Of a stretch of DNA of 64,000 nucleotides, positions 43,184-55,425 are shown piece by piece. Both the position numbers and the translations under genes were made by a program. The stretch lies in IMG/VR virus record IMGVR_UViG_3300028895_001288. One strand, 5' to 3'. This DNA comes from an uncultured virus (IMG/VR IMGVR_UViG_3300028895_001288). Taxonomy: Duplodnaviria > Heunggongvirae > Uroviricota > Caudoviricetes. The notes beneath the pieces were generated by a model that saw only the letters and a list, made by a program, of their open reading frames with translations, searched no databases and was not told where the DNA came from. Numbering within the stretch: position 1 is the first letter of the stretch; each line of letters starts with the position of its first letter.

Positions 43184-44417
43184 ACCACACTGGCTGTCGT
43201 TCATACAGGACGCGCTGCCACTGCTGAAGAAGATGACGTCCCTGGACTGGCCCCAGACCTACTGGGAGTCGCTGGAGCACTACGAGGAGCTGGATTACTA
43301 CTACTTCCAGCGCCTGCCGTTCGTGGGAGGCATGGACATGCTCAAGGCCCGGCTGGCCACGCTGGGCATGGCCGAGCGGGACATCGCCGCGCAGGTCCAC
43401 GTGCTGCAGGAGGAGGCCTACGGGGTCATGTCCTTCCACAAGCATGAGTGCCGGGTGATCAGGCCCACCGCCGACGCGGTGAGCGCGCTGTGCCGGACCG
43501 AGGTGAACGTGCCGCTGGTGGACATCGTGGCGCCGTACCCGCACGTGTACATCGCCCTGCCCAAGGAGCAGAAGTTGAAGGTCAGGCACTTCCGCGACCC
43601 GGACAAGATGGTTGACCTGCAGGGCATGTACGTCACCTGGGCCCCCACGGGTCAGGCGACGAAGGACGCGCTCGCCGCCAGCGACGAGGTCGTCTTCAAG
43701 CGAAACAAGTGGGGCCTGATCGTGCCGGAGCACCAGGCCGCCGCCGATGATGAAGTCGTGAAGCCTTCCCCGGAGATGTTCGGGGACTGGGCGTGCCGCG
43801 TGCAGGCGGTGGCCTGGGCCGGCCCGGACCAGAAGCACAACTACACGACCACCTTCTTCAACATGCGGTGGCTGGAAGACACCAAGGAGGAAGCGGAGGG
43901 CGCCTACAAGCGCTTCACCGAGCACTGGATGCCGTCCTACGAGAAGTGTCCGGGCGGGCAGCTGGGCAGCTTCGAGCTCAACGAGCAGCTCTTCCACCTG
44001 GTCGCGAACCTGTACCTCTACATGTCGCAGAAGGGCGACGACGAGGACGTGGTCTGGATGCCGGACGAGGACCGGGAGCGGTACCGCCAGCGCAAGCAGC
44101 GCCGCATGGGGTCCAAGCAGCGCCGCAAGCTCAAGCAGCGCCTGCTCGAGGAGATGCCCACGGATGAGTGGATCGTGGGCCAGAAGTTGAAAGTTGACAA
44201 AAGTATCGAAGAGTCCGATACTGGCGAACAACTTGGGACAGGCAAGAAACACGCGTCTCCGAAGACGCACTGGCGGCGGGCGCACTGGCACGGGTACTGG
44301 ACCGGACCGAGGCAGGGGCCCCGCAAGAAGGTGTACAGGCGGGTCGAGCGCGTCCTGATCGTGGGGCGCGGCAAGAAGCCCGACTACACCTTGATCTCGG
44401 TGGAGAAGAAGAAATGA
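43167..44417 (+). CDS. Hypothetical protein with C-terminal SPKTHWRRAHW.GYW.GP motif
   Basis: 416-aa ORF; motif recognised from phage/mobile-element proteins of unknown function. Confidence 0.7.
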   Translation: MRGGPKPHWLSFIQDALPLLKKMTSLDWPQTYWESLEHYEELDYYYFQRLPFVGGMDMLKARLATLGMAERDIAAQVHVLQEEAYGVMSFHKHECRVIRPTADAVSALCRTEVNVPLVDIVAPYPHVYIALPKEQKLKVRHFRDPDKMVDLQGMYVTWAPTGQATKDALAASDEVVFKRNKWGLIVPEHQAAADDEVVKPSPEMFGDWACRVQAVAWAGPDQKHNYTTTFFNMRWLEDTKEEAEGAYKRFTEHWMPSYEKCPGGQLGSFELNEQLFHLVANLYLYMSQKGDDEDVVWMPDEDRERYRQRKQRRMGSKQRRKLKQRLLEEMPTDEWIVGQKLKVDKSIEESDTGEQLGTGKKHASPKTHWRRAHWHGYWTGPRQGPRKKVYRRVERVLIVGRGKKPDYTLISVEKKK

Positions 44418-44725
44418 AAATCTGTGAATTCGTCGCAGAGCTGATGAGTAACAAGGACGTCCTGCTGAACGGCCACAACGTGCTGGACGAGTCGGTTACC
44501 CATACGTGCAACCTGGACGAGAAGGTGTTTGCCAAGCTCCACCCGGATCAGCAGTGGATGCTGCTCTGCGAGCTTCGGAAGCTCCTGTCCAAGTGCGACC
44601 ATGCCTACGACGCGGGCCGCGTGGCGCGGGGCGAGTTGACGGAAGGCGATGTCAACCGCCTCCGCAGCGGCATGGGCGGCGTTGAGGGGAGCGACTTGAG
44701 GACGCTTAGGGGACTCGGCGGATGA
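44414..44725 (+). CDS. Hypothetical protein
   Basis: Coupled ORF (ATGA overlaps). Confidence 0.6.
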   Translation: MKICEFVAELMSNKDVLLNGHNVLDESVTHTCNLDEKVFAKLHPDQQWMLLCELRKLLSKCDHAYDAGRVARGELTEGDVNRLRSGMGGVEGSDLRTLRGLGG

Positions 44726-45468
44726 AATCCGAAGAAATCAGGATCTACGCGTTGCTGTACGGTCCCCACGAGGACCTGCACCGGCGCTTGCTGGACAGCA
44801 TCGCCAGGAATGTCCCTGAGGACGTGGGGCTCGACCTGTGGCTGAACGTCGTGGGCGACGCCACCAAGTACATGGTCAGCGAGTTGGGCGGCGGCCCGCG
44901 CAGCGTGCACGTCAACACGAGCGATACAAACGTGCCGAAGTACGAGGCCATGCGCGAGATGTTCGGGCGGTTGAAGGCGGGCGCGCACCCGGAGGTCAAG
45001 TGGCTCGTCTGGTTCGACGACGACGCTCACATCGAGGGAGAGTACGGTCACTGGTGGATTCACACGACAGGGTGGATCAAGGAGCGCGAGCCCAAGAACG
45101 TCTGCTACACGGGCCAGTGCTGGTTCATTGACTGGAAGGCGGGGCAGGAGCAGTTCATCCGGGAGGCACCCTGGTACAAGGGGCTGCCGGCCAAGATGGT
45201 GGGCAACAAGCGCAAGCGGCCGGGCATCGAGTTCGCGCAGGGGTCGTACTGGTGGCTGAGGCGCGACGTCATGCAGCAGTTGGATTGGCCGGACCCGCGG
45301 CTCAAGCACAACGGCGGCGACACCATGCTCGGCGAAGCGGTTCGCCAACAGGGGTTGCCGTTCCACAAGCTGCCGTGGGACTGTTTCGGCGTGAAGACCA
45401 ACGACGCACCCCGGCGCGGGCACCACGAGGCGCCGGCCGGGTGCATCGACAAGAATGCGAGGGCCTGA
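44722..45468 (+). CDS. GT-A fold glycosyltransferase-like protein
   Basis: WLVWFDDD (DxD), FAQGSYW, HNGGDTMLGE. Confidence 0.7.
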   Translation: MKSEEIRIYALLYGPHEDLHRRLLDSIARNVPEDVGLDLWLNVVGDATKYMVSELGGGPRSVHVNTSDTNVPKYEAMREMFGRLKAGAHPEVKWLVWFDDDAHIEGEYGHWWIHTTGWIKEREPKNVCYTGQCWFIDWKAGQEQFIREAPWYKGLPAKMVGNKRKRPGIEFAQGSYWWLRRDVMQQLDWPDPRLKHNGGDTMLGEAVRQQGLPFHKLPWDCFGVKTNDAPRRGHHEAPAGCIDKNARA

Positions 45469-45854
45469 TGTTAGTGGAGATGAGACTGACGGTCGAAGTG
45501 GAAAGTGCCGGTAAGAAGAAGGGCGACACGGAGGATTACATACAGCTGCACAGGCAGCTGGAGATGGAGGTCATACCTTCAAGAGGTGACATCCTTTATT
45601 CGGAGCATGATTTGGTACTCCGGGTCAAGGAGGTGCGCCACTACATAGACAGATCTCCCCCCTTGATTGAGTTGGATCTGGAGGAGGACGAAGCGCCTGT
45701 TCAACCAGATCGTCTTGATTTGGAGGCACTTCGGCAAGGGTGGATGTCTTTCATGTGGAAGCACGGGTGGGTGGTGGACCTGGACGACTCGCTTTTACCT
45801 AGAAGAGGCGACATGTGGTTACTGCTAGAGCCCTTTAAGAGAAAAGAGAGATAA
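45468..45854 (+). CDS. Hypothetical protein
   Basis: TGATG coupling; ends just before the tmRNA. Confidence 0.6.
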   Translation: MLVEMRLTVEVESAGKKKGDTEDYIQLHRQLEMEVIPSRGDILYSEHDLVLRVKEVRHYIDRSPPLIELDLEEDEAPVQPDRLDLEALRQGWMSFMWKHGWVVDLDDSLLPRRGDMWLLLEPFKRKER

Positions 45855-45858
45855 CGCT

Positions 45859-46223
45859 GGGCCCGATTTAGATTCGACGGCGGGTACGGAGGATGTGGCA
45901 GCACGCCGCGGTTGATCGGTTGGCCGCGTTATCAAGCCGATCACACAATCAAATGCCAAGACGAAAGTCGTGGCCGGCGACTTCGGCGCAAGCCGGGTCG
46001 CCCTCGCTGCTTAACCGACAGCGGGTGAAGGTGCCCGTACTCCTGGTCCCCAGGTAAGAACGGGAAGGTCCAAAGGGGGATGGCAGCGGGGAAGACTGCT
46101 GACGGCAACCAAAGGCTGCTGACGGGGCCGCCGGGTCCTGGGAAAGACCGAACCCGGATAAGCGTGTAGAGACCCCTTCCGAAGTTCCGGCGGACTTGGG
46201 TGCAAATCCCAACGGGTCCACCA
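45859..46223 (+). ncRNA. ssrA: tmRNA (transfer-messenger RNA)
   Basis: 5' GGGCCCGA..GATTCGAC; 3' CGGGTCCACCA acceptor with G3-U wobble; T-arm TTGGG-TGCAAAT-CCCAA; tag frame 45955-46014 AKTKVVAGDFGASRVALAA*. Confidence 0.95.
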
Positions 46224-46242
46224 TTTATAGGAGTGGATTTTA

Positions 46243-47390
46243 ATGCATGCAGGTGAAGCGTTGTGGACGCTGTACGCTGCGCTGGCGGCCGTTGGCCAGC
46301 GCACCCTGAAGGACCCCGGGGCGAACGCCCTGTTGACGAAGGCGGAGGAGTGCTGCGCCGTACTCGGGCAGCACATCAAGGTCGAGCCGCCCCCGATCGA
46401 CCAGAAGATGCTCAGGGCGGCGGACCTGGTTGAGCGGCTGGTGCAGGCGGACGAGGCCGAAAGTAAGGCCAGTACGATTACGGATGGCGCGGCCCGCGAG
46501 GCCTTCGACCTGGCGGTCGGCATCCTGGAGGACCTGGACGAGCTGCCCGACCGGGCGGAGGAGTTCACGGAGTCCGTGCGGGAGAAGGTTACCAGCATGC
46601 GCGACAGCATTGAGAAGTACGACAACGTGACGGCGCCGATGATGAAGGCGCTGCAGAACATGCGTGGGGGCGTCGACAGGTGGCTGAAGCGATAGGAGAG
46701 AACATGTCGGGTGAAGACAAGGTCCCTTCGGTCAAGGAACGCATACAGCAGAAGGCTTCGGGCGCGCACAAGACGCCCGAGGAGTTGAAGGCGGAGACGA
46801 CGCAACGCATCGCCAAGGAGGTGTTCAACGTCGAATCGCCGATTACGGAGGAACGGCGGATCGCGGCGAACCTGGAACGCGACAAGCTCAAGGCCAAGCA
46901 GGCCGGCAAGCTGCAGCTGCTCAACATGAGCGGCGGCCACCTGGCCAACCTGATCGTCGGGATCTGGACGTTGATGTCGGTCACGGCGGCGGTGGTGGCC
47001 ATGGTGACGTACTACTTCCTGTTGATTCACATCGAGGAGGCGCGCAAGGCTGCGCCTGTGCCGGCGAAGCAGGAGCCGGTCGTGGTCAATGTGCCTCCCA
47101 TGCCGGAAACCAAACCCCCACAACTGTTCGTCTTCCTGCCTGGTAAAGAGGGCACGAAGACCATCAGGGTGGAGGGCATCAACCCGGCCACCTGGCCGGA
47201 CGAGGTGCGCATCCGGCTTTCCGACATGGAGGCGCTGAAGTCGATTTTGAAGGAGCTGAAGCCCCCGGACCCTCCAAAGGCCGCCCCGCCAAAGAAGAAG
47301 GCGCGGGCGGCAAAAAGCACACAAGTCCAGAAGGGTAAGGACGGTAGCGAGTGGCTACCGCCTCCGAGGGACGTGGTTCCGCGGCAGTAG
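46243..47390 (+). other. Hypothetical genes 46243-46695 and 46704-47390 (membrane protein)
   Basis: RBS AGGAG; TM helix in the second. Confidence 0.65.
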
Positions 47391-47392
47391 GC

Positions 47393-47421
47393 TTCACATA
47401 ACCCACAACATGCAGTACACT
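47393..47421 (+). promoter_or_regulatory. Sigma70-like promoter TTCACA-N17-TACACT
   Basis: 17-nt spacer; -10 lies 7 nt before ATG 47429. Confidence 0.55.
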
Positions 47422-47428
47422 TCGGGAC

Positions 47429-47677
47429 ATGGACATCGAGATACAGTACTGCGAGTTGTGAGGGGGTCGAGAACACGCCGACCGTGTTGTCGGTGAGATC
47501 CGCCGGTACCTGTCGCTGCCCACGAGCATCCTTGACGTGGGCAAGGGCAAGTTCGAGGTGCTGGTCAATGGCAAGACCATCTTTTCAAAGCAGAAGGCAG
47601 GACGGTTTCCGCGTCCCGGCGAGATCGCCAAGATCTGTCGGGACACGTTCCGAAATCCGATGCAGGCATCGAAATGA
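47429..47677 (+). CDS. Rdx (SelW/SelT/SelH-like) selenoprotein with CxxU motif
   Basis: MDIEIQYCELU(TGA 47459-47461)GGREHA...GKGKFEVLVNGKTIFSKQKAGRFPRPGEI; family signature continues in frame across the TGA; ATGA overlap with the next gene. Confidence 0.88.
47476..47495 (+). promoter_or_regulatory. Candidate bacterial SECIS hairpin
   Basis: CGCCGAC-CGTGTT-GTCGGTG; loop begins 21 nt after the UGA and carries GU near its 5' end. Confidence 0.65.
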
Positions 47678-48361
47678 GCATGTCGAAGCCCAACTGGAGC
47701 GACCTGAAGCGCCGCCGGCGCATGGGTCGCGCGCAGCGCTGGAAGTCCGCCGTGAAGCACGTACCGCGGCTGACCGCCTTCTGCGCCGAGCACGGCGTGG
47801 AAATGAGATCCGTGGATGGGGGGTATCAGTTCCGGTTCATGGAGTACGTGATCATCTGGTTCCCGGCGACCAACAAGGTGCTGGTCCAATACCAGTTGCC
47901 GGGGCATGAGACCGTTCGATTTGAAGAGAACGGACAACACAACAAGCCACGTGTACTAGTGGCACTGGAGGAGATGGTTGACCTCACGAGGCCTAAATGC
48001 GTATCGCACGGTTAGTCTGTGCGTGACCGACAGCGTCTCGTCAGAGTGTCGGTTGTGCCAGTGCCGATCCCGACGAGACGAGCAGCTTGTGGCCCTGGAG
48101 CTGTACCCCGGGCCGAGGCTTGAGATCTACTGCTGTGAGTGTTACGAACACCTCTGGGTGGAAGCGTCTCCACACATGCCGGAGCTGCCTCCGCTGATTC
48201 AGTTGGAGACGGAAACTTCGCAGCTACAGGTACCGGAGTACCTGGTCAAGGACAACAGCCTGTTCCAGTTGTTCTTTCCGAGCGACCCCATCAACCTGGG
48301 CGTCCTCAGGCAGCAGCGCCGCCGCGAACGCGGCCAGCTCGAAAAGGAGGGTAAGAGGTGA
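47674..48361 (+). other. Hypothetical genes 47674-48015 and ~47978-48361 (Cys-rich)
   Basis: Coupled ORFs. Confidence 0.55.
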
Positions 48362-48849
48362 TAAGGAACCCGCAGTTTCATCTCGGGGCGTTGTTCATGG
48401 TTTTGCTGATGGCCCCGCCCGTACTGACAGGGTGTTGGGGCAACGGCACCCCGGTCGACACGCCCCAGAAGAGGGCGGAGTTGGCGAAGGACGCCGGAGA
48501 GCTGGCGGCGCTGGGCTACCTGGCGATCGACAAGCCCTCCAACGAGGACGCCGCGAAGATCAAGGAGATCATCGACAAGGTCCGCGGCAGCCTTACGGAG
48601 TGGAAGGAGGGCGGCTTCATCACGGCGCTGCCCGAGCTGGAGGAACTGGCCGACAAGCTCTTCGAGGGGGAGGACAAGAAGGCTCTTCGCATCGGCGCCA
48701 AAAAGCTGACGAAGATGCTGCTCGAGGAGCTGGACAACCTCTTTGAAAAGAACCCTTCGTGGAAGGACAAGGGCGACGAGGTGGCCACGCTGATCGGGAA
48801 GTTTATGGATGGGGCCTCGGACTCGTTCAAGACGTACATTGAGTCCTAG
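48358..48849 (+). CDS. Predicted lipoprotein
   Basis: Hydrophobic signal with LTGC lipobox. Confidence 0.7.
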   Translation: MIRNPQFHLGALFMVLLMAPPVLTGCWGNGTPVDTPQKRAELAKDAGELAALGYLAIDKPSNEDAAKIKEIIDKVRGSLTEWKEGGFITALPELEELADKLFEGEDKKALRIGAKKLTKMLLEELDNLFEKNPSWKDKGDEVATLIGKFMDGASDSFKTYIES

Positions 48850-48915
48850 GTGCACCGCGTTATCGTCATCGTGATCACGGCGACGCCTGTTACTTTGGAA
48901 AACCTGAGAATAGAT

Positions 48916-48943
48916 GAGAGGGTGGTCTGGTGACCACCCTCTC
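48916..48943. terminator. Perfect 12-bp hairpin (terminator or regulatory)
   Basis: GAGAGGGTGGTC-TGGT-GACCACCCTCTC; weak T tract. Confidence 0.45.
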
Positions 48944-49201
48944 TTCGTTGGAGGAGACATCATGAACAAATTGCCGCGAGACCGGAACAGGCCTTCCCGC
49001 AACCGCACGAAGAGGGTTCACCTGCTTCATGAGGGGCGCGGGGCGTGCGGCCTCAAACTCAAGGGTCGCCGCAAGGCCATCGCGATCGTGGAAGCGGGCG
49101 ACATCGAGAAGATCACCTGCCGGAAGTGCCTCGATGCCGAGGTGCCGCCCAAGGAGCTTGTGCCCGTCGCGGAGTCACAGCCGGGTCTCTGATCTTTGGG
49201 C

Positions 49202-49229
49202 TTGTCAATCGAAGTTCTCGATATACACT
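49202..49229 (+). promoter_or_regulatory. Sigma70-like promoter TTGTCA-N16-TACACT
   Basis: Intergenic; shares TACACTTCGGG with the 47416 promoter; inverted repeat CGAAGTTC/GAACTTCG around the -10. Confidence 0.5.
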
Positions 49230-49251
49230 TCGGGGAACTTCGGGGGATCTC

Positions 49252-50169
49252 ATGGAACTCTGGGTGATGTACTCGCCGTCGAACCTGGGCGGCCACCAGC
49301 TGGTCGGGCAGTTGTCCTCCGCGTTCATGGAGCGGGAGGAGATCGACAACGTTCTATCCATCCCGGACAACACGCTGCATGAGCACAGGGAGTGGGAGAC
49401 CCTGCCGGACATGCTGTTGCTGGTCGATGCCATCGAGTCCTACATGTCCTGGCGCTTCGCCGTGCCGGGGCGGCCGTGGATCTGCGCGGCCTCGTTCTCC
49501 TACGCCGACCTCTACACGCTGTACCGCGGCGGCGTGCGCCTGAACGAAACGGGCATCAATTACGTTCTGACCAACTGTGCTTCCTACGTGGAGCGCTCCA
49601 CGGCGACCATGCCGGCCAAGCTGTGCTACCGCCCCATGACGGAGAAAGGCGGACGGCACGCGGGTCTGCCGACTGTAGGGGCGGTGCTGCCGAACGTGAA
49701 GGACCGGGACTTCAGCCTGCTGTTGTGGGTGCGCGAGAAGCTCATACAGCGAGGCATGCAGTCCCGGTTCAAGGTCTTCCTGCACGCGGATGCCGAGGGG
49801 CGGCTGCCCGGGAAGCTGCAGTTCGAGACCTACACGGACGAGCGCAGGCCTTACGGCGACATCGACGTGTATGTTCCGGTGCCGCGCATCACGGATTACC
49901 GGTCCGGCGTCATCCCGGCCGAGTTCATCCAGGCCTGGCACGCGGGCTGCCGCCCGCTCGCCGTTTTTCATCCGAACCTGGAGCCGTTGGGGATTCCGCT
50001 TTACGGCTCCCTGTTGGAGATCGAGCAGGACCTGGACAAGCTGGCGGAGGGCGAGGACCTGACGCCGTACGGCCCGCCCAGCGAGGAGTTCTGCCCGAGT
50101 ATGGAAACATTTGTCACGGAGGTCATGCAGGGACGTGAACGATGGGAACGAGACCGAGTCGCCCATTAA
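49252..50169 (+). CDS. Hypothetical protein, possibly degenerate GT-B glycosyltransferase
   Basis: YGDIDVYVP...PAEFIQAWHAGCRPL resembles a GT-B C-terminal motif. Confidence 0.45.
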   Translation: MELWVMYSPSNLGGHQLVGQLSSAFMEREEIDNVLSIPDNTLHEHREWETLPDMLLLVDAIESYMSWRFAVPGRPWICAASFSYADLYTLYRGGVRLNETGINYVLTNCASYVERSTATMPAKLCYRPMTEKGGRHAGLPTVGAVLPNVKDRDFSLLLWVREKLIQRGMQSRFKVFLHADAEGRLPGKLQFETYTDERRPYGDIDVYVPVPRITDYRSGVIPAEFIQAWHAGCRPLAVFHPNLEPLGIPLYGSLLEIEQDLDKLAEGEDLTPYGPPSEEFCPSMETFVTEVMQGRERWERDRVAH

Positions 50170-50998
50170 GGGTGCGGTATTCAGGCTGACGGATGTCGTG
50201 GCGAGGTTCGAGAGGCTGTTGACCCTCTCGGCGGGTTTCAAGGGGGAGCGGCTGCAGGGTGCCATACTGGCCGACTTCGCCAAGATCGTGTGCAGGGGAC
50301 TCAGGCTGTACGACGAGGCAAGGGAACGGGCCCACGCGGCACTGACCCTGTACAGCGGCCGGGTCCTCGATTGGGCGTTTTACATCGACTTGTGCTGGCT
50401 AATGGCGGCCGGGTACCCCCGGTTCAAGAAAGGGCTGGAGATACGCAACAAGTTTTCGGACGCCGGCAGCCGGTGGGTCGGCATCCAGGTCACGGACGTG
50501 CGGCCGGCCCCGCGCAGCAAGCACGGCACGAACAGGGCGGAGGTCCACTTCCGCATACTGACGGGAATCTTCTGCGGGCTGAAGTTCACCCAGTGGATGC
50601 CGCACGACTACGTGACGAAGATCATGGCGAAGACGATGGGCACGCTGCGGTATGCGGGGGCGCAGCCCAAGGAAGTGGTCGGCATGCTGGGCGTGGTGCT
50701 GATCGAGCTGAACAGGCGCGGACCGCAGGTCAGGGACCTGCGCGTGCCAGGCGGCGCCCTGACCTACAACAAGAAGCTGCGCAACAAGCGGGCGGAGCCG
50801 TGCATATGGAAGTACCAGTGGCCCTGTCACCTGTGTCCCATCGGGAACAGCGCCGAAAGCCAGCGATGCAGCAGGGGGACGCACCCCTTCACGTACGAGT
50901 ACCGGGAGTGCCCGAGCTGCAAGCACAGGACGTGGTTCGACACGCACAGCAAGTCGGGCGTATGCGTCTCGTGCGGTGAGAAGCGGTCCAAGCGATAG
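50135..50998 (+). CDS. Hypothetical protein with C-terminal zinc ribbons (start uncertain)
   Basis: CHLC, CPSC, CVSC. Confidence 0.65.
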   Translation: MNDGNETESPIKGAVFRLTDVVARFERLLTLSAGFKGERLQGAILADFAKIVCRGLRLYDEARERAHAALTLYSGRVLDWAFYIDLCWLMAAGYPRFKKGLEIRNKFSDAGSRWVGIQVTDVRPAPRSKHGTNRAEVHFRILTGIFCGLKFTQWMPHDYVTKIMAKTMGTLRYAGAQPKEVVGMLGVVLIELNRRGPQVRDLRVPGGALTYNKKLRNKRAEPCIWKYQWPCHLCPIGNSAESQRCSRGTHPFTYEYRECPSCKHRTWFDTHSKSGVCVSCGEKRSKR

Positions 50999-51007
50999 GA
51001 GCAGGTC

Positions 51008-51553
51008 ATGCAGATGCGTCCACCAGGCGGCGGCGACCAGCGCTGGTACAGCCCCGAGAGGGACCTGGCCTACGCGCTGCCGCGTTACTTCCGGCAGGCC
51101 ATCTTCGTGCGCTTCGGCGGCGAGGATGCCCGCACGAAGCGGGACTACGGTCCCTACAACTTCGACCTGGAGGGCGTGACGGAGGAGCAGTTCGGCGAGG
51201 CGTGTGTCAAGGTGAGGGAGCTGTTCCTGGCGATGCGCGACTGCCAGTTCCCGGACATGGAGGTCTTCCGGGAGCGCCTCAACGAACTGGATGAGAAGGT
51301 GCTGGGTCCGCTGTTGTGGCCCATGTTCCTGATCATGCTGACGGAGTACCGGGAGTGGTGCGCGCTGGTCTCACCGAAGGACGAGACCGACACCGCGATC
51401 GACATGAAACGCATGGAAAGGGTTGTCAACGATTTCGTACGCACGATCACCAAGAGGAAGAACCCGCTCTACAGGTTCATCCAGGACCTTGCCTGGATGG
51501 CCAGGCGAGCCCTCTCGAGGGGAAAGAAAGACAATGAAGCAACTTTTGACTGA
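51008..51553 (+). CDS. Hypothetical protein
   Basis: RBS AGGAG; coding-like. Confidence 0.65.
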   Translation: MQMRPPGGGDQRWYSPERDLAYALPRYFRQAIFVRFGGEDARTKRDYGPYNFDLEGVTEEQFGEACVKVRELFLAMRDCQFPDMEVFRERLNELDEKVLGPLLWPMFLIMLTEYREWCALVSPKDETDTAIDMKRMERVVNDFVRTITKRKNPLYRFIQDLAWMARRALSRGKKDNEATFD

Positions 51554-52235
51554 GATCGCCTCCAGATGCCCGGGCGGGAAACTGCCCGAGTCCTACCTGG
51601 TCTTCGACACCGAGACCAGCGGGGTGAATCCGACGAAGGACAAGATCCTTCAATACGGGTTCGGCGTCGTCAAGGAGGGCCAGCTGGTGGACCACTTCTC
51701 CATACTGGTCAACCGGCCGGGCTTGAAGATCGCGCCGGGCGCCGTGGCCGTGCACGGCATCAGCGAGGAAAAGATGGCCGCGGAGGGCATGGACGCCGAG
51801 GCGGCCTTCAACGAGGTGCTGTCGACCTTCCAGGCCTATCGCTGCGCCGAGCAGATGTTCGTCGGGCACAACATGATCGCGTTCGACGCGGAGCTGTTCG
51901 AGAACGAGTCCCGCCATTGGGGCAAGGAGTTCCGCTTCGGGGAGAACGAGATCTTCGACACGGGCATGGTGGTGAAGGCCGCCCAGTTGGGGATGTACTT
52001 CGACCAGCGCGACTCGATCCGCTCCTGGGCCCGCAAGGTCAGCGAGGTCAGGGCGCGGGGCGTGTACTGGTCGCTGGACCGGCACTGCTTCTCGGCGTTC
52101 AAGCTGTCGAAGTTCGGGCTCGACAAGGAAGCGGCCCACGACGCCGGTGAGGACTGCCAGCTGACCCACTTCCTCGTGAAGCGCTTCAAGGAGAAGCTGG
52201 AGGAGCTCATCCCCGAAGAGGAGATCCCGTTTTGA
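51534..52235 (+). CDS. DEDDh 3'-5' exonuclease (DnaQ/epsilon-like)
   Basis: VFDTETSG, VGHN..FD, IFDT, AHDAGED. Confidence 0.92.
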   Translation: MKQLLTEIASRCPGGKLPESYLVFDTETSGVNPTKDKILQYGFGVVKEGQLVDHFSILVNRPGLKIAPGAVAVHGISEEKMAAEGMDAEAAFNEVLSTFQAYRCAEQMFVGHNMIAFDAELFENESRHWGKEFRFGENEIFDTGMVVKAAQLGMYFDQRDSIRSWARKVSEVRARGVYWSLDRHCFSAFKLSKFGLDKEAAHDAGEDCQLTHFLVKRFKEKLEELIPEEEIPF

Positions 52236-52846
52236 GCAAACCGATCAGGGCCATAGGGGTCGACGCGGGTTTTCGCAAGACGGGCGTGGCCCTGTTCGAC
52301 CTGCGCCCCAAGGGCGATGTGCTTGTCGCGGCGGACACGCTCGTCACCTCGAAGGAGACGGCGTCCGACCGGTTGAACGACGACGTGGATGCGTGTTGGA
52401 ACCTCTACACCAACATCGAGACGTTCATGATCAAGTACGAGCCGAGCGCCGCTTTCATTGAGATGCCTCACGGCGGCGCGCAGGGTGCGCGGGCGAACCG
52501 CTGCATGGGCATGGCGACGGCCGTGATGGCGTCCCTGTTCAACGCGGTCGGCATGCCCTACGAGATGTTTGCGCCGACGGAGGTGGAGAAGGCGCTGGGC
52601 GTCTTCCTGACGAACAAGCAGGCACGCGAGATGGGCATCCCCAAGGGGAAGACGGGCAAGCACAAGAAGGACCGCCTGAAGAGCATCGTGCTGGCCGAGT
52701 TCCCCGACTTCGACGGTTGGCCCAAGGCGGTCACACGGGCGGAGGACGCCTACGACGCGGCGGCCGTCTTCCACGCCGCGCGCTTCCGCGGCAGCGAACT
52801 ATACCTGAAACTAAGGAGGAAAGTCAGTGGCGGACAAGCCGGTTGA
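52232..52846 (+). CDS. ruvC: RuvC-like Holliday junction resolvase
   Basis: IGVDAGFRKTGVA, AFIE, PTEVEKAL, EDAYDAAAV. Confidence 0.82.
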   Translation: MSKPIRAIGVDAGFRKTGVALFDLRPKGDVLVAADTLVTSKETASDRLNDDVDACWNLYTNIETFMIKYEPSAAFIEMPHGGAQGARANRCMGMATAVMASLFNAVGMPYEMFAPTEVEKALGVFLTNKQAREMGIPKGKTGKHKKDRLKSIVLAEFPDFDGWPKAVTRAEDAYDAAAVFHAARFRGSELYLKLRRKVSGGQAG

Positions 52847-53993
52847 TCCCAAGAAGCAGTTCCTGCAGGCCGAGCACGACGCGATGCTGGAGAAGATCCG
52901 GCAGTCGAAGGGGCAGGAGTCCTCGCCCCTGCTCGGGCCCGACGGCCAGCCCATTGTCAAGGACAAGGACGGCAAGCCCAAACCCGAAGGGATCGTGACG
53001 CCCGGTGAGATGGGCGCGCCGGCCAGCCAGGAGGAGTTCGACGAGCTGCTCGCCAAGCAGCGCCAGCAGGAGCGTGAGAAACGCGATGCGCTGGGCAAGC
53101 AGCTGCAGAAGGCGTTCGAGGACAACAAGGAGTTCGGGCTGGTGGCCGGGCATCTCCTGACGGCGTACCGGCTGCTGTTCTGGCTGATGAGCGAGGCGAT
53201 GACCCACGAGGGCGTCACCAAGGACATGATCAACCACCTCAGCGACTCCTGCCGGGCGAGCGCCATGAACCAGGGGTACAGCCTGCAGGAGCTGATCGGC
53301 ACGATCCGCGGCAACCTGGTGCCCATGCTGAACGGCCGCATGCAGTACTACAGCCGCAAGCAAAAGGCCCGCCAGGCCAAGATCAAGCAGATCGAGAAGC
53401 GCATCGGCGCCAAAGGCGTGGCGCTGCCGTGCCTTTCCATGGAGCGGATGTTCAAGGACAAGGACGGCAACCTGTCCGGTTTCCGCCCCGGGAGCATCAT
53501 GCTCGTTCACGGCTCGCCCCTGGCAATCACCTACGCGTTGGCGGCGTGTGCGAAGTCGCATAAGGAGAAGAACAACGGCGAGTCGTGGTTCCTGCAGCGC
53601 GTCAACGAGAAGGACGAGCACGACTACATCACGTTCATGCCGTGCAAGTGGTGGAAGCACAAGGCTCAGAGCTACAAGGAGCTGGAGGAGACACTCGAGC
53701 CGATCCGCAAGAGCGGAGCGGTGCTGGTGTTGATCGACCAGCTTGATCTGCTGCACCCGCACGACGGGACGCTGCAGAGTCAGTCCAGGGCAGGGGCCAA
53801 GGCGCTGGGGAACCTTTACCAGTGGGCCACGGAGAATTGTGTGTGCTTCATCATCGGTGACGTGGTCGGCGACGACGTCACCGTGCCGCCCGAGGCGTAC
53901 AGCCCGCTACCGCATCTGCCGGTGGCCCTCCGTAACGTGGAGGGGGAGCAGAAGCTCGTGATCGGTAACGACGTAATGGACATCGACCTATGA
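52827..53993 (+). CDS. RecA/DnaB-like P-loop-fold protein lacking an intact Walker A
   Basis: GFRPGSIMLVHGSP and LVLIDQLDLL resemble helicase motifs; no GKT/GKS. Confidence 0.45.
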   Translation: MADKPVDPKKQFLQAEHDAMLEKIRQSKGQESSPLLGPDGQPIVKDKDGKPKPEGIVTPGEMGAPASQEEFDELLAKQRQQEREKRDALGKQLQKAFEDNKEFGLVAGHLLTAYRLLFWLMSEAMTHEGVTKDMINHLSDSCRASAMNQGYSLQELIGTIRGNLVPMLNGRMQYYSRKQKARQAKIKQIEKRIGAKGVALPCLSMERMFKDKDGNLSGFRPGSIMLVHGSPLAITYALAACAKSHKEKNNGESWFLQRVNEKDEHDYITFMPCKWWKHKAQSYKELEETLEPIRKSGAVLVLIDQLDLLHPHDGTLQSQSRAGAKALGNLYQWATENCVCFIIGDVVGDDVTVPPEAYSPLPHLPVALRNVEGEQKLVIGNDVMDIDL

Positions 53994-54571
53994 AGATCAA
54001 GTTGGGATGTGTCGGCTACACCACCCAGATCAGGGAGGACTGGGAGCAGTTCGCTCCCGAGATCACGCCCCCGTCCAACTACAAGGACAAGGCGAAGATC
54101 GCGAAGTACGTTGAAGACGCCAGGATGAAGCAGCTGAACACGGCGGATACGACGCCGCTGTTGTGTGAGTTCCGCGAAGTCTGCGCGGTTAACGAGAAGG
54201 GGGAATGCGTGGAGCTGATGACGGGGACCCGTATGGCCTATCTGGGTCAGTTCACGCACATTGCCGTGATAGGGGCGTCGTTGATGCGGCACCTGCTCAT
54301 GCGCGAGCAAATCGAGCACGGCAGGAAATTGGACGCGGGGCAACTGTGGAACATCATGAGCCTGCGTACAGGCTATCCGTTTCTGGCGGGCGGTAGTACG
54401 GGGAAGGACATTTTCGACCCCGTGCACGCACTCACCTGCACGAGCACGCTGGACGATCATCTGGACAGCGTGGCAAAGGCGTACGGATACAAGCACGGCA
54501 CCCTTACGGCGACGGATCGGGCGGTATTCGCGTACCATCTTTGCAAGCTCATGGGGATTGCCGATGGATGA
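53990..54571 (+). CDS. Hypothetical protein resembling phage PolB-type exonuclease-like proteins, probably inactive
   Basis: PPSNYKDKAKIAKYVE motif; acidic DxE exonuclease motif absent. Confidence 0.45.
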   Translation: MKIKLGCVGYTTQIREDWEQFAPEITPPSNYKDKAKIAKYVEDARMKQLNTADTTPLLCEFREVCAVNEKGECVELMTGTRMAYLGQFTHIAVIGASLMRHLLMREQIEHGRKLDAGQLWNIMSLRTGYPFLAGGSTGKDIFDPVHALTCTSTLDDHLDSVAKAYGYKHGTLTATDRAVFAYHLCKLMGIADG

Positions 54572-55425
54572 TCGACTCGTCAGGCCTGCGCCTGACTTCC
54601 AATTCGCGGAGTCGTTCAAGGACCTGGAGCGTCAGGGGTTCGTCCCCTGCGCTCTGGGTCCGGTCTACGTCTACGCGGAAGTGAAGGAGAGCATCCCGGA
54701 CCGCTTTGCCATGGAGGACATACCTGGCAAGCCGTCCGAGATGCGGGGCATGGAGCTGCGCCTGGAGCGGCCCATCCTGTCCCACTGCATGGACTGGAAC
54801 TACATGCTCAACATCATCGACGGTGACAGCTTCCCGTACTTCAAGCAGTGGCTGCTGTCGCAGCAGTTCGTCAACCGCGAGAAACGCTGCTTCTACGTGG
54901 TCCGGCACTTCAAGGTGCCGGTAAAGGACCCTATTGCTTTAGCTCTCGGCAAGTCCGTGGACACGGCGCTGGACGTCTTCACGCTGAGCGGTTTTTCGGG
55001 GTTGCTCAAGCCGGTGATCTCCACCCTGCCGGCGACCTACACGGGCACCAAGGACCCCAAGGAGCTGTCCCCGCGGGACGAGGTGGCCAAGCGGGTGGAC
55101 GCGGTCGTGCCAGACTTCGTGGTGCTCAAGGTCGCCTCGCCCGAGGACGAGGTGATCGACCTGGGCAAGGCCGCGCTGGAGATCGTGGACAATGCGTAGG
55201 CTGAAGATTATTTCGGACGGCACACCCGAAGGTACGCGCCTGGTCGACAGTGTGACGTCGGAGGATTTGAAGTTGCCCATTAAGAGCATTGTGTGGCGGT
55301 TTGACGTGGAGAGTTTCCCAACCGCGGAAGTGACGCTGTTGTGTCCTCTGGCTACGTTGGTGGCGGATACCGTCATAGGAGGCCCGGATGGACCGGTCGA
55401 AAACAAAGGTGGCAGTGATCGGTGA
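54564..55425 (+). other. Hypothetical genes 54564-55199 and 55192-55425
   Basis: Coupled ORFs. Confidence 0.6.

Follow-up and report, generated by a model that had tools for sequence, protein, structure and literature searches.

Does an in-frame TGA in a small gene of an uncultured jumbo phage end translation, or can it be read as selenocysteine (Sec)? The question is raised by a locus on the plus strand (47429-47677) of the 64,000-nucleotide stretch of an IMG/VR virus record analysed here, hereafter the window, in which the earlier note had seen a phage-encoded selenoprotein gene. Our analyses make it very likely that this is a functional SelW/Rdx-like gene of the jumbo phage, with the UGA at codon 11 standing for Sec and expression depending on host machinery.

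A SelW/Rdx-like frame with one internal TGA

A single open frame of 82 codons plus stop runs from ATG 47429-31 to TGA 47675-77, with one internal TGA, the proposed Sec codon, at 47459-61 (codon 11, U11). The ATG is the sole start because an in-frame TAA at 47399-401 is followed by no later start codon. Read through, the frame gives MDIEIQYCEL-U-GGREHADRVVGEIRRYLSLPTSILDVGKGKFEVLVNGKTIFSKQKAGRFPRPGEIAKICRDTFRNPMQASK (82 aa), the residues after U being GGREHADRVVGEI...GKGKFEVLVNGKTIFSKQKAGRFPRPGEIAKICRDTFRNPMQASK. U11 is the second position of a CxxU redox motif (TGC GAG TTG TGA, C-E-L-U, 47450-47461, plus strand), the first Cys of which is C8 (codon TGC, 47450-52). The stop codon and the start of the next ORF, ATG 47674, share an ATGA overlap, so that both the frame and the overlap described in the earlier note are present in the DNA. 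The gene had also been called invisible to the ORF track and, indeed, ordinary ORF listing gives just a 46-aa tail from GTG 47537 out of the 82 residues, reported by ORF callers as the protein P0003.

The read-through product is a full-length member of the Rdx/SelW family, as had been claimed. It matches the Pfam family Rdx (PF10262) with 44 bits against a cut-off of 22.6 (E 2.6e-11), residues 3-72 aligning on profile positions 2-74 of 74 and thus spanning the TGA, as well as the NCBIfam model TIGR02174 ‘CXXU_selWTH’ (38.7 bits, cut-off 34.2). A six-frame search of the phage genome also recovers the gene, with 35.6 bits and ‘1 TGA’ inside the match. The score against the equivalog NF041051 SelTWH_Campy, 57.5 bits, is under its 88-bit cut-off, which places the protein outside that equivalog. 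A profile of 34 family members matches eight distinct PDB sequences, all of the Rdx fold (MIEN1 2ljk, Atu0228 2fa8, 3dex, 2p0g, 2oka, 2obk, 2ojl and mouse SelW 2npb), with an E-value of 7.8e-16 against 2fa8.

The same 34-member alignment yielded an AlphaFold2 model (pLDDT 91, pTM 0.78) with the predicted elements E3-7, H13-28, E32-36, E42-46, E49-53 and H65-75, that is, a thioredoxin-like b1-a1-b2-b3-b4-a2 order in a model rather than a solved structure. Its top Foldseek matches are 2fa8, 2obk and 2p0g (TM 0.76-0.85). The SelW-related structures Atu0228 (2fa8, TM 0.83-0.85) and that of P. fluorescens (2obk) are thus close to it in shape, and sequence identity to the window protein is 20-29% across 2fa8, 2obk, V. 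cholerae 2p0g, MIEN1 2ljk and mouse SelW 2npb. In the model, CxxU lies between strand 1 (3-7) and helix 1 (13-28), and this place, at the N-terminus of helix 1 in a fold of thioredoxin type, suggests a thiol/selenol oxidoreductase. For the SelW-like proteins of cells, the solved bacterial ones among them, no function has been settled. Our best guess for a role during infection is redox buffering or the reduction of a phage or host disulfide; neither ribonucleotide reductase nor thioredoxin was found in the phage genome.

The gene sits among plus-strand genes devoid of family assignment. The 236-aa gene upstream (46680-47390 in the ORF list) ends 38 nt before the SelW-like start and has a 70%-identical homologue in the relative L005, with no family found in Pfam or PHROG. 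The 113-aa gene directly downstream (47674-48015, ORF list), whose start forms the ATGA overlap, has no Pfam or PHROG family either. More generally, 15 of 15 neighbouring proteins lack a Pfam family, 38 of the 55 window ORFs tested lack a PHROG family, and so does every ORF flanking the gene from 44414 to 55196. Two further signals were seen in this region. A sigma-70-like site (TTCACA-17-TACACT, 47393-47421, plus strand) ends 8 nt before the ATG and would make the mRNA nearly leaderless, although one such site against 0.6 expected is not significant. A strong 12-bp GC-rich terminator-like hairpin lies on the minus strand at 48916-48943, between plus-strand genes.

A phage lineage carrying TGA and Cys forms

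The record is clearly that of a real jumbo phage with a complete genome: it measures 211,084 bp, has direct terminal repeats, a CheckV completeness of 100% and 62.7% GC, and encodes a large terminase subunit (phrog_675, E 5.6e-42). Further PHROG matches include DNA polymerase, primase, DnaB-like helicase and UvsX-like recombinase, as well as baseplate wedge, tail fibres and RNA-polymerase beta-like pieces. With regard to the latter, a 2358-aa ORF (G000:C1:131428-138501, plus strand; L096:8861-15934) fuses a polynucleotide-kinase/phosphoheptose-isomerase-like N-terminal part to RNA-polymerase beta-like parts, and another RNAP beta-like ORF follows it.

Related genes occur on other contigs. L001, a 65 kb viral contig, is identical to the window over 321 of 321 aligned bases, TGA included, and the truncated 46-aa call is on record for nine contigs. 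A TGA is also found in L005 (68% identity to the window, 10.8 kb contig), L003 and L007 (51%, contigs of 163 and 186 kb), L008 (47%, 1 kb) and L009 (46%, a 7.7 kb contig of 40% GC), i.e., in four further divergent phage-type genes. Two other genes have TGC instead: L006 and L010 (54% identity; the contig of L010 measures 139 kb) and L011 and L012 (35%, contigs of 16.4 and 9.0 kb). The record of L003 is classed as a provirus and holds no tRNA-Sec. All the related SelW-like genes are flanked by homologues of the same genes, a 248-aa one upstream and 113-, 127- and 163-aa ones downstream. The 248-aa gene (44722-45468, plus strand), which serves as the lineage-wide marker of the block conserved upstream of the SelW-like gene, has tblastn matches of 45-61% identity in L003, L005, L007, L008, L009, L010, L011 and L012, always upstream; the 113-aa gene adjoins the SelW-like gene in L003, L005, L006, L007, L008, L010, L011 and L012. 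This order is kept in contigs of 139-211 kb, and such conserved synteny argues that the gene is an inherited part of the phage lineage. No SelW-like relative was found among 50,697 deposited phage genomes, no PHROG family matches the protein, and a bacterial-type profile finds just the same two IMG/VR contigs in a search limited by its patterns.

These comparisons bear on two ways in which the TGA might be meaningless. One is that a sequencing or assembly error altered the codon, or that a bacterial fragment was mis-binned as viral, the record being derived from a metagenome. However, a second viral contig carries the identical sequence, the truncated call recurs on nine contigs and four further diverged genes have TGA at this place; the record bears the direct terminal repeats, the completeness and the hallmark genes of a phage; and the gene sits in the block conserved among large contigs. 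An artefact therefore seems all but refuted on comparative grounds, and we regard it as extremely improbable. The other possibility is a dead or truncated gene in which the TGA ends translation after 10 residues and the rest is a decaying remnant or a 46-aa piece expressed from GTG 47537. That ORF callers report just P0003 would fit this idea, as would the lack of recognition of the window hairpin by a bacterial covariance model (see below). Nevertheless, in five divergent genes (the window's own and its TGA-bearing relatives of 46-68% identity) a single TGA is retained, at one and the same column, with no further stop or frameshift, and a product confined to the 46 C-terminal residues would miss the N-terminal part of the predicted fold, with strand 1, the redox motif and helix 1. 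Moreover, between the window and L005, codons 1-36 have dN 0.31 and dS 1.15 (dN/dS about 0.27) and codons 37-71 have dN 0.06 and dS 0.91, these being small samples in which dS nears saturation for more distant pairs. The first 36 codons thus appear to be under purifying selection, and a dead gene is very unlikely.

What remains to be asked is whether the column occupied by the TGA is one where Cys and Sec alternate, as an alignment of homologues should reveal. A word-indexed search brought up P0002 (63% identity, YCLMCGG) and P0004 (YCELCGG), both full-length relatives in which Cys takes this place, so that Cys is seen at this column in P0002, P0004, L006/L010 and L011/L012, and TGA in L005, L003/L007, L008 and L009. 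An exhaustive protein search returned 94 proteins at E <= 1e-3, many of them 46-60-aa calls starting after query residue 17-38, as expected from other Sec forms. The first motif Cys is invariant in all 34 aligned full-length members, and at the second motif position 19 of them have Cys, 11 have W and 3 some other residue, the window being the remaining one. Not one of the 80 DNA loci from bacteria or archaea has TGG at the Sec column, so these W residues most likely stem from source pipelines that applied table 4 to the TGA; it appears that SelW-like selenoproteins have entered public protein sets with their TGA rendered as W. The bacterial or archaeal loci, drawn from a genome collection, have TGA at the column in 74 of 80 cases and TGC or TGT in 5, and selB scores above its curated cut-off in each of the five tested bacterial genomes holding TGA forms. 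The homologues thus carry Cys or TGA where the phage has TGA, and the column appears to have switched between Sec and Cys within the phage lineage. One bacterial MAG locus, L028 (about 240-300), has TGA at the first motif Cys instead (IKY-U-HAS-G) and may be a UxxS variant.

Compared with the bacterial SelW-like selenoproteins (PF10262/TIGR02174), the phage protein shares the fold, the CxxU/CxxC column and about the same length. By contrast, the bacterial proteins mostly have U-N-Y or U-G-Y after Sec, and the phage protein belongs to a distinct ‘C-x-M/L-U-G-G’ subclade; the bacterial genes are cellular, whereas the window gene is encoded by a jumbo phage.

The hairpin downstream of the UGA

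A putative bacterial-type SECIS hairpin, reported in the earlier note as a 7-bp stem with its loop 21 nt after the TGA, is present at 47476-47495 on the plus strand, with CGCCGAC (47476-82) and GTCGGTG (47489-95) enclosing the loop CGTGTT (47483-88). It comprises 7 bp including one G.U and a loop of 6 nt (CGUGUU), has a dG of -9.6 kcal/mol, and lies 14 nt (stem) and 21 nt (loop) from the UGA. The bSECIS consensus in the available part of PMC13188914 gives a loop of 3-9 nt and a stem of 4-16 bp (Fig. 2 legend), G in the first two loop positions followed by U, a distance of 16-37 nt from the UGA and an MFE at or below -7.5 kcal/mol, and the window hairpin agrees with every feature printed there. 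Such criteria are loose in this GC-rich genome: 383 of 5722 phage TGA triplets (6.7%) pass with stems of at least 5 bp and 171 (3.0%) with stems of at least 7 bp. The 62-nt fold is no more stable than shuffled sequences (z = 0.22; 110 of 200 fold as well), and its ViennaRNA MFE favours a competing 6-bp hairpin, AACACG/CGUGUU. At gathering score, Rfam matches tmRNA alone in the window and no SECIS family. A covariance model built solely from 64 bacterial SelW-like genes (hereafter R1) leaves the window hairpin unscored with default filters; with filters off, its best hit in 47400-47700 reaches -0.1 bits, away from the hairpin. The check for a bacterial SECIS that had been suggested is thus favourable with respect to the printed consensus and negative with R1 and Rfam. 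Taken alone, the window hairpin is no better than chance, and its weight comes from comparison with relatives.

That the hairpin is conserved among TGA-bearing homologues, as claimed, is borne out in the phage-type genes, all five of which have a GC-rich hairpin in the same place, starting 14-16 nt after the UGA. Next to that of the window (CGCCGAC-CGUGUU-GUCGGUG), these are CGUCGAC-CGGGUU-GUCGACG in L005 (dG -9.4 kcal/mol), CCCGGCG-GGU-CGCCGGG in L003 (-12.7 kcal/mol), CCGCC-CGUGU-GGCGG in L008 (-7.5 kcal/mol) and CUGCC-CGUGU-GGCAG in L009 (-6.0 kcal/mol). We described them by a perfect stem of at least 5 bp with at most one G.U, an apex 26-27 nt from the U of the UGA and a G in the first two loop positions, a definition set after seeing the data. 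Such a hairpin is present in the five TGA genes of the clade and in neither of the two distinct Cys forms with DNA that served as negatives, and occurs at 1.5% of phage positions (0.15% for stems of at least 7 bp). The loop codons encode Arg-Val (CGN GUN) in all five Sec forms and other residues in the Cys forms.

The hairpin of L005 is in the same register as that of the window, from which it differs by C-G to U-A at one pair and G.U to G-C at another. The former is a compensatory double change. At the protein level the two correspond to Ala>Val and Gly>Asp, and such replacements with kept pairing suggest that the protein sequence yielded to pairing. Since three pairing registers are in use among the five hairpins, this one sequence pair is all that bears on strict column covariation, and covariation evidence in the strict sense appears thin among the phage-type genes.

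The same region was also compared among the bacterial genes. Sixty-four distinct TGA genes, a set from which 6 loci were dropped for a one-codon insertion, 4 as duplicates and 6 for lacking CxxU, share a GCCGCC-A-GUC-U-GGCGGC-type hairpin starting 14 nt after the UGA. Its columns are paired in 87.7% of cases versus 26-49% in slid controls, five of the eight pairs show double changes, and none of 500 shuffles reaches the covariation score. Four of the eight stem pairs are fixed by Ala-Ala...Ala-Ala codons (alignment A5, columns 18-36), which is why Cys forms still pair in 29 of 56 cells (52%): SECIS structure and conserved peptide motif are entangled, and the informative pairs are the wobble-wobble ones. 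The bacterial SelW-like SECIS and the phage-type hairpin occupy the same nucleotides, with stem start and apex as in the window, but the bacterial loop has 3-5 nt versus 6 nt (CGUGUU) in the window, and the stem sequence differs. R1 recovers L008 (21.7 bits, E 0.003), with a full-length match that begins at the UGA, and the hairpin of L009 with 13.5 bits (E 0.26), and does not find the hairpins of the window, L005 or L003.

Proposed decoding of the UGA and probable dependence on the host

TGA is the commonest stop of this phage, closing 122 of 219 selected ORFs, and coding coverage falls from 0.848 to 0.714 when it is read as sense. The assertion that TGA is the normal stop elsewhere thus agrees with the whole genome, and, TGA being the main phage stop, the recoding would be site-specific. 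A global reassignment of TGA (tables 4 or 25) was rejected because reading it as sense collapses coding density. Scanned for genes with an in-frame TGA, the phage yields 10 candidates, one of them the SelW-like gene; the nine others have no redox motif or homology support and are partly alternative frames of real genes. Global TAG recoding is not indicated by any clear excess of TAG-split same-frame ORF pairs (11 for TAG, 7 for TAA and 8 for TGA), and the minus-strand TAG-split pairs run antisense to long genes. The sole phage tRNA (G000:C1:35106-35180) has the anticodon CTA, of suppressor type, and reads UAG, not UGA; ARAGORN labels it ‘tRNA-Pyl’.

Neither tRNA-Sec (ARAGORN; Rfam RF01852) nor selA, selB or selD was found in the phage genome, which therefore must use host machinery for Sec, and we infer a Sec-using host. 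This absence might also favour a UGA read through without Sec, by a near-cognate Trp or Cys tRNA or another suppressor, with the hairpin slowing termination, all the more as the phage, which carries a suppressor-type tRNA and a tmRNA, meddles with decoding and as the window hairpin differs from the bacterial consensus. Yet the phage tRNA reads UAG rather than UGA, more than half of the selected ORFs rely on TGA as their stop, the column is the Sec/Cys site of the family, with TGA in most cellular relatives and selB in every genome tested that holds them, and the hairpin is exactly where the family SECIS lies. We thus consider read-through without Sec highly unlikely, and decoding as Sec by the host machinery the better account.

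Under Sec decoding, the SelW-like gene would be transcribed together with its plus-strand neighbours and, when the ribosome reaches the UGA, the mRNA hairpin at 47476-95, acting as an in-ORF SECIS of bacterial type, would recruit the host SelB.GTP.Sec-tRNA(Sec). Sec would then be inserted instead of termination, giving the 82-residue protein with its CxxU redox centre at the start of helix 1. All the Sec machinery being supplied by the host, expression would need a Sec-competent host and selenium. The UGA followed by an in-ORF stem-loop recalls the SelB-dependent insertion of the E. coli fdhF type. A viral parallel is the glutathione peroxidase of poxviruses, a selenoprotein gene acquired from cells that uses the host Sec machinery, as proposed here for the phage; in fowlpox its SECIS lies in the coding region, according to the available part of PMC8310308. 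However, that case involves a eukaryotic virus, a eukaryotic SECIS and SBP2/eEFSec, whereas the window has a bacteriophage, a bacterial-type SECIS and the Rdx family.

The earlier note had held that selenoproteins are rarely reported in phages. No report of one was found in the full-text literature, subscription journals being outside its coverage, so that the claim stands within that scope. The viral selenoproteins named in the available text of PMC8310308 are the molluscum contagiosum and fowlpox glutathione peroxidases; the words ‘phage’, ‘virus’ and ‘viral’ are absent from a 2026 review of prokaryotic selenoproteomes (PMC13188914); and few or no viral sequences of selenoprotein families in GOS data are mentioned in the portion available of PMC9402790. 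As far as we found, the protein family and the mechanism are well known and the phage setting is new.

If our reading is correct, a whole recoding unit, made up of a UGA and an in-ORF SECIS, can be taken up by phages, which then draw on the host machinery for the 21st amino acid, and ORF callers systematically truncate such genes, as in the 46 of 82 residues reported here. A gene decoded as Sec requires a host that decodes Sec, and would therefore constrain host prediction for uncultured jumbo phages. It would also offer a small, tractable case of Sec/Cys switching in one syntenic gene. More speculatively, and in our opinion rather unlikely, a lineage of huge phages might carry a Sec redox gene vertically and switch it between Sec and Cys across hosts, its fitness being tied to host selenium metabolism and the Sec/Cys state marking hosts that decode UGA as Sec.

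Finally, a phage tmRNA with the tag AKTKVVAGDFGASRVALAA (45859-46223, plus strand; Rfam 93.6 bits) precedes the SelW-like gene by about 1.2 kb. BLAST of this tmRNA against 151 genomes of one phylum, that of a Pirellulaceae MAG (G002), gave three short weak matches. Of nine clade loci, just one, the closest relative L005 (L005:906-1288), has a tmRNA in the flanking DNA that was retrieved. In each of these two closest genomes the tmRNA lies about 1.2 kb from the SelW-like gene, and it might conceivably act on ribosomes that stall or terminate at the recoded UGA.
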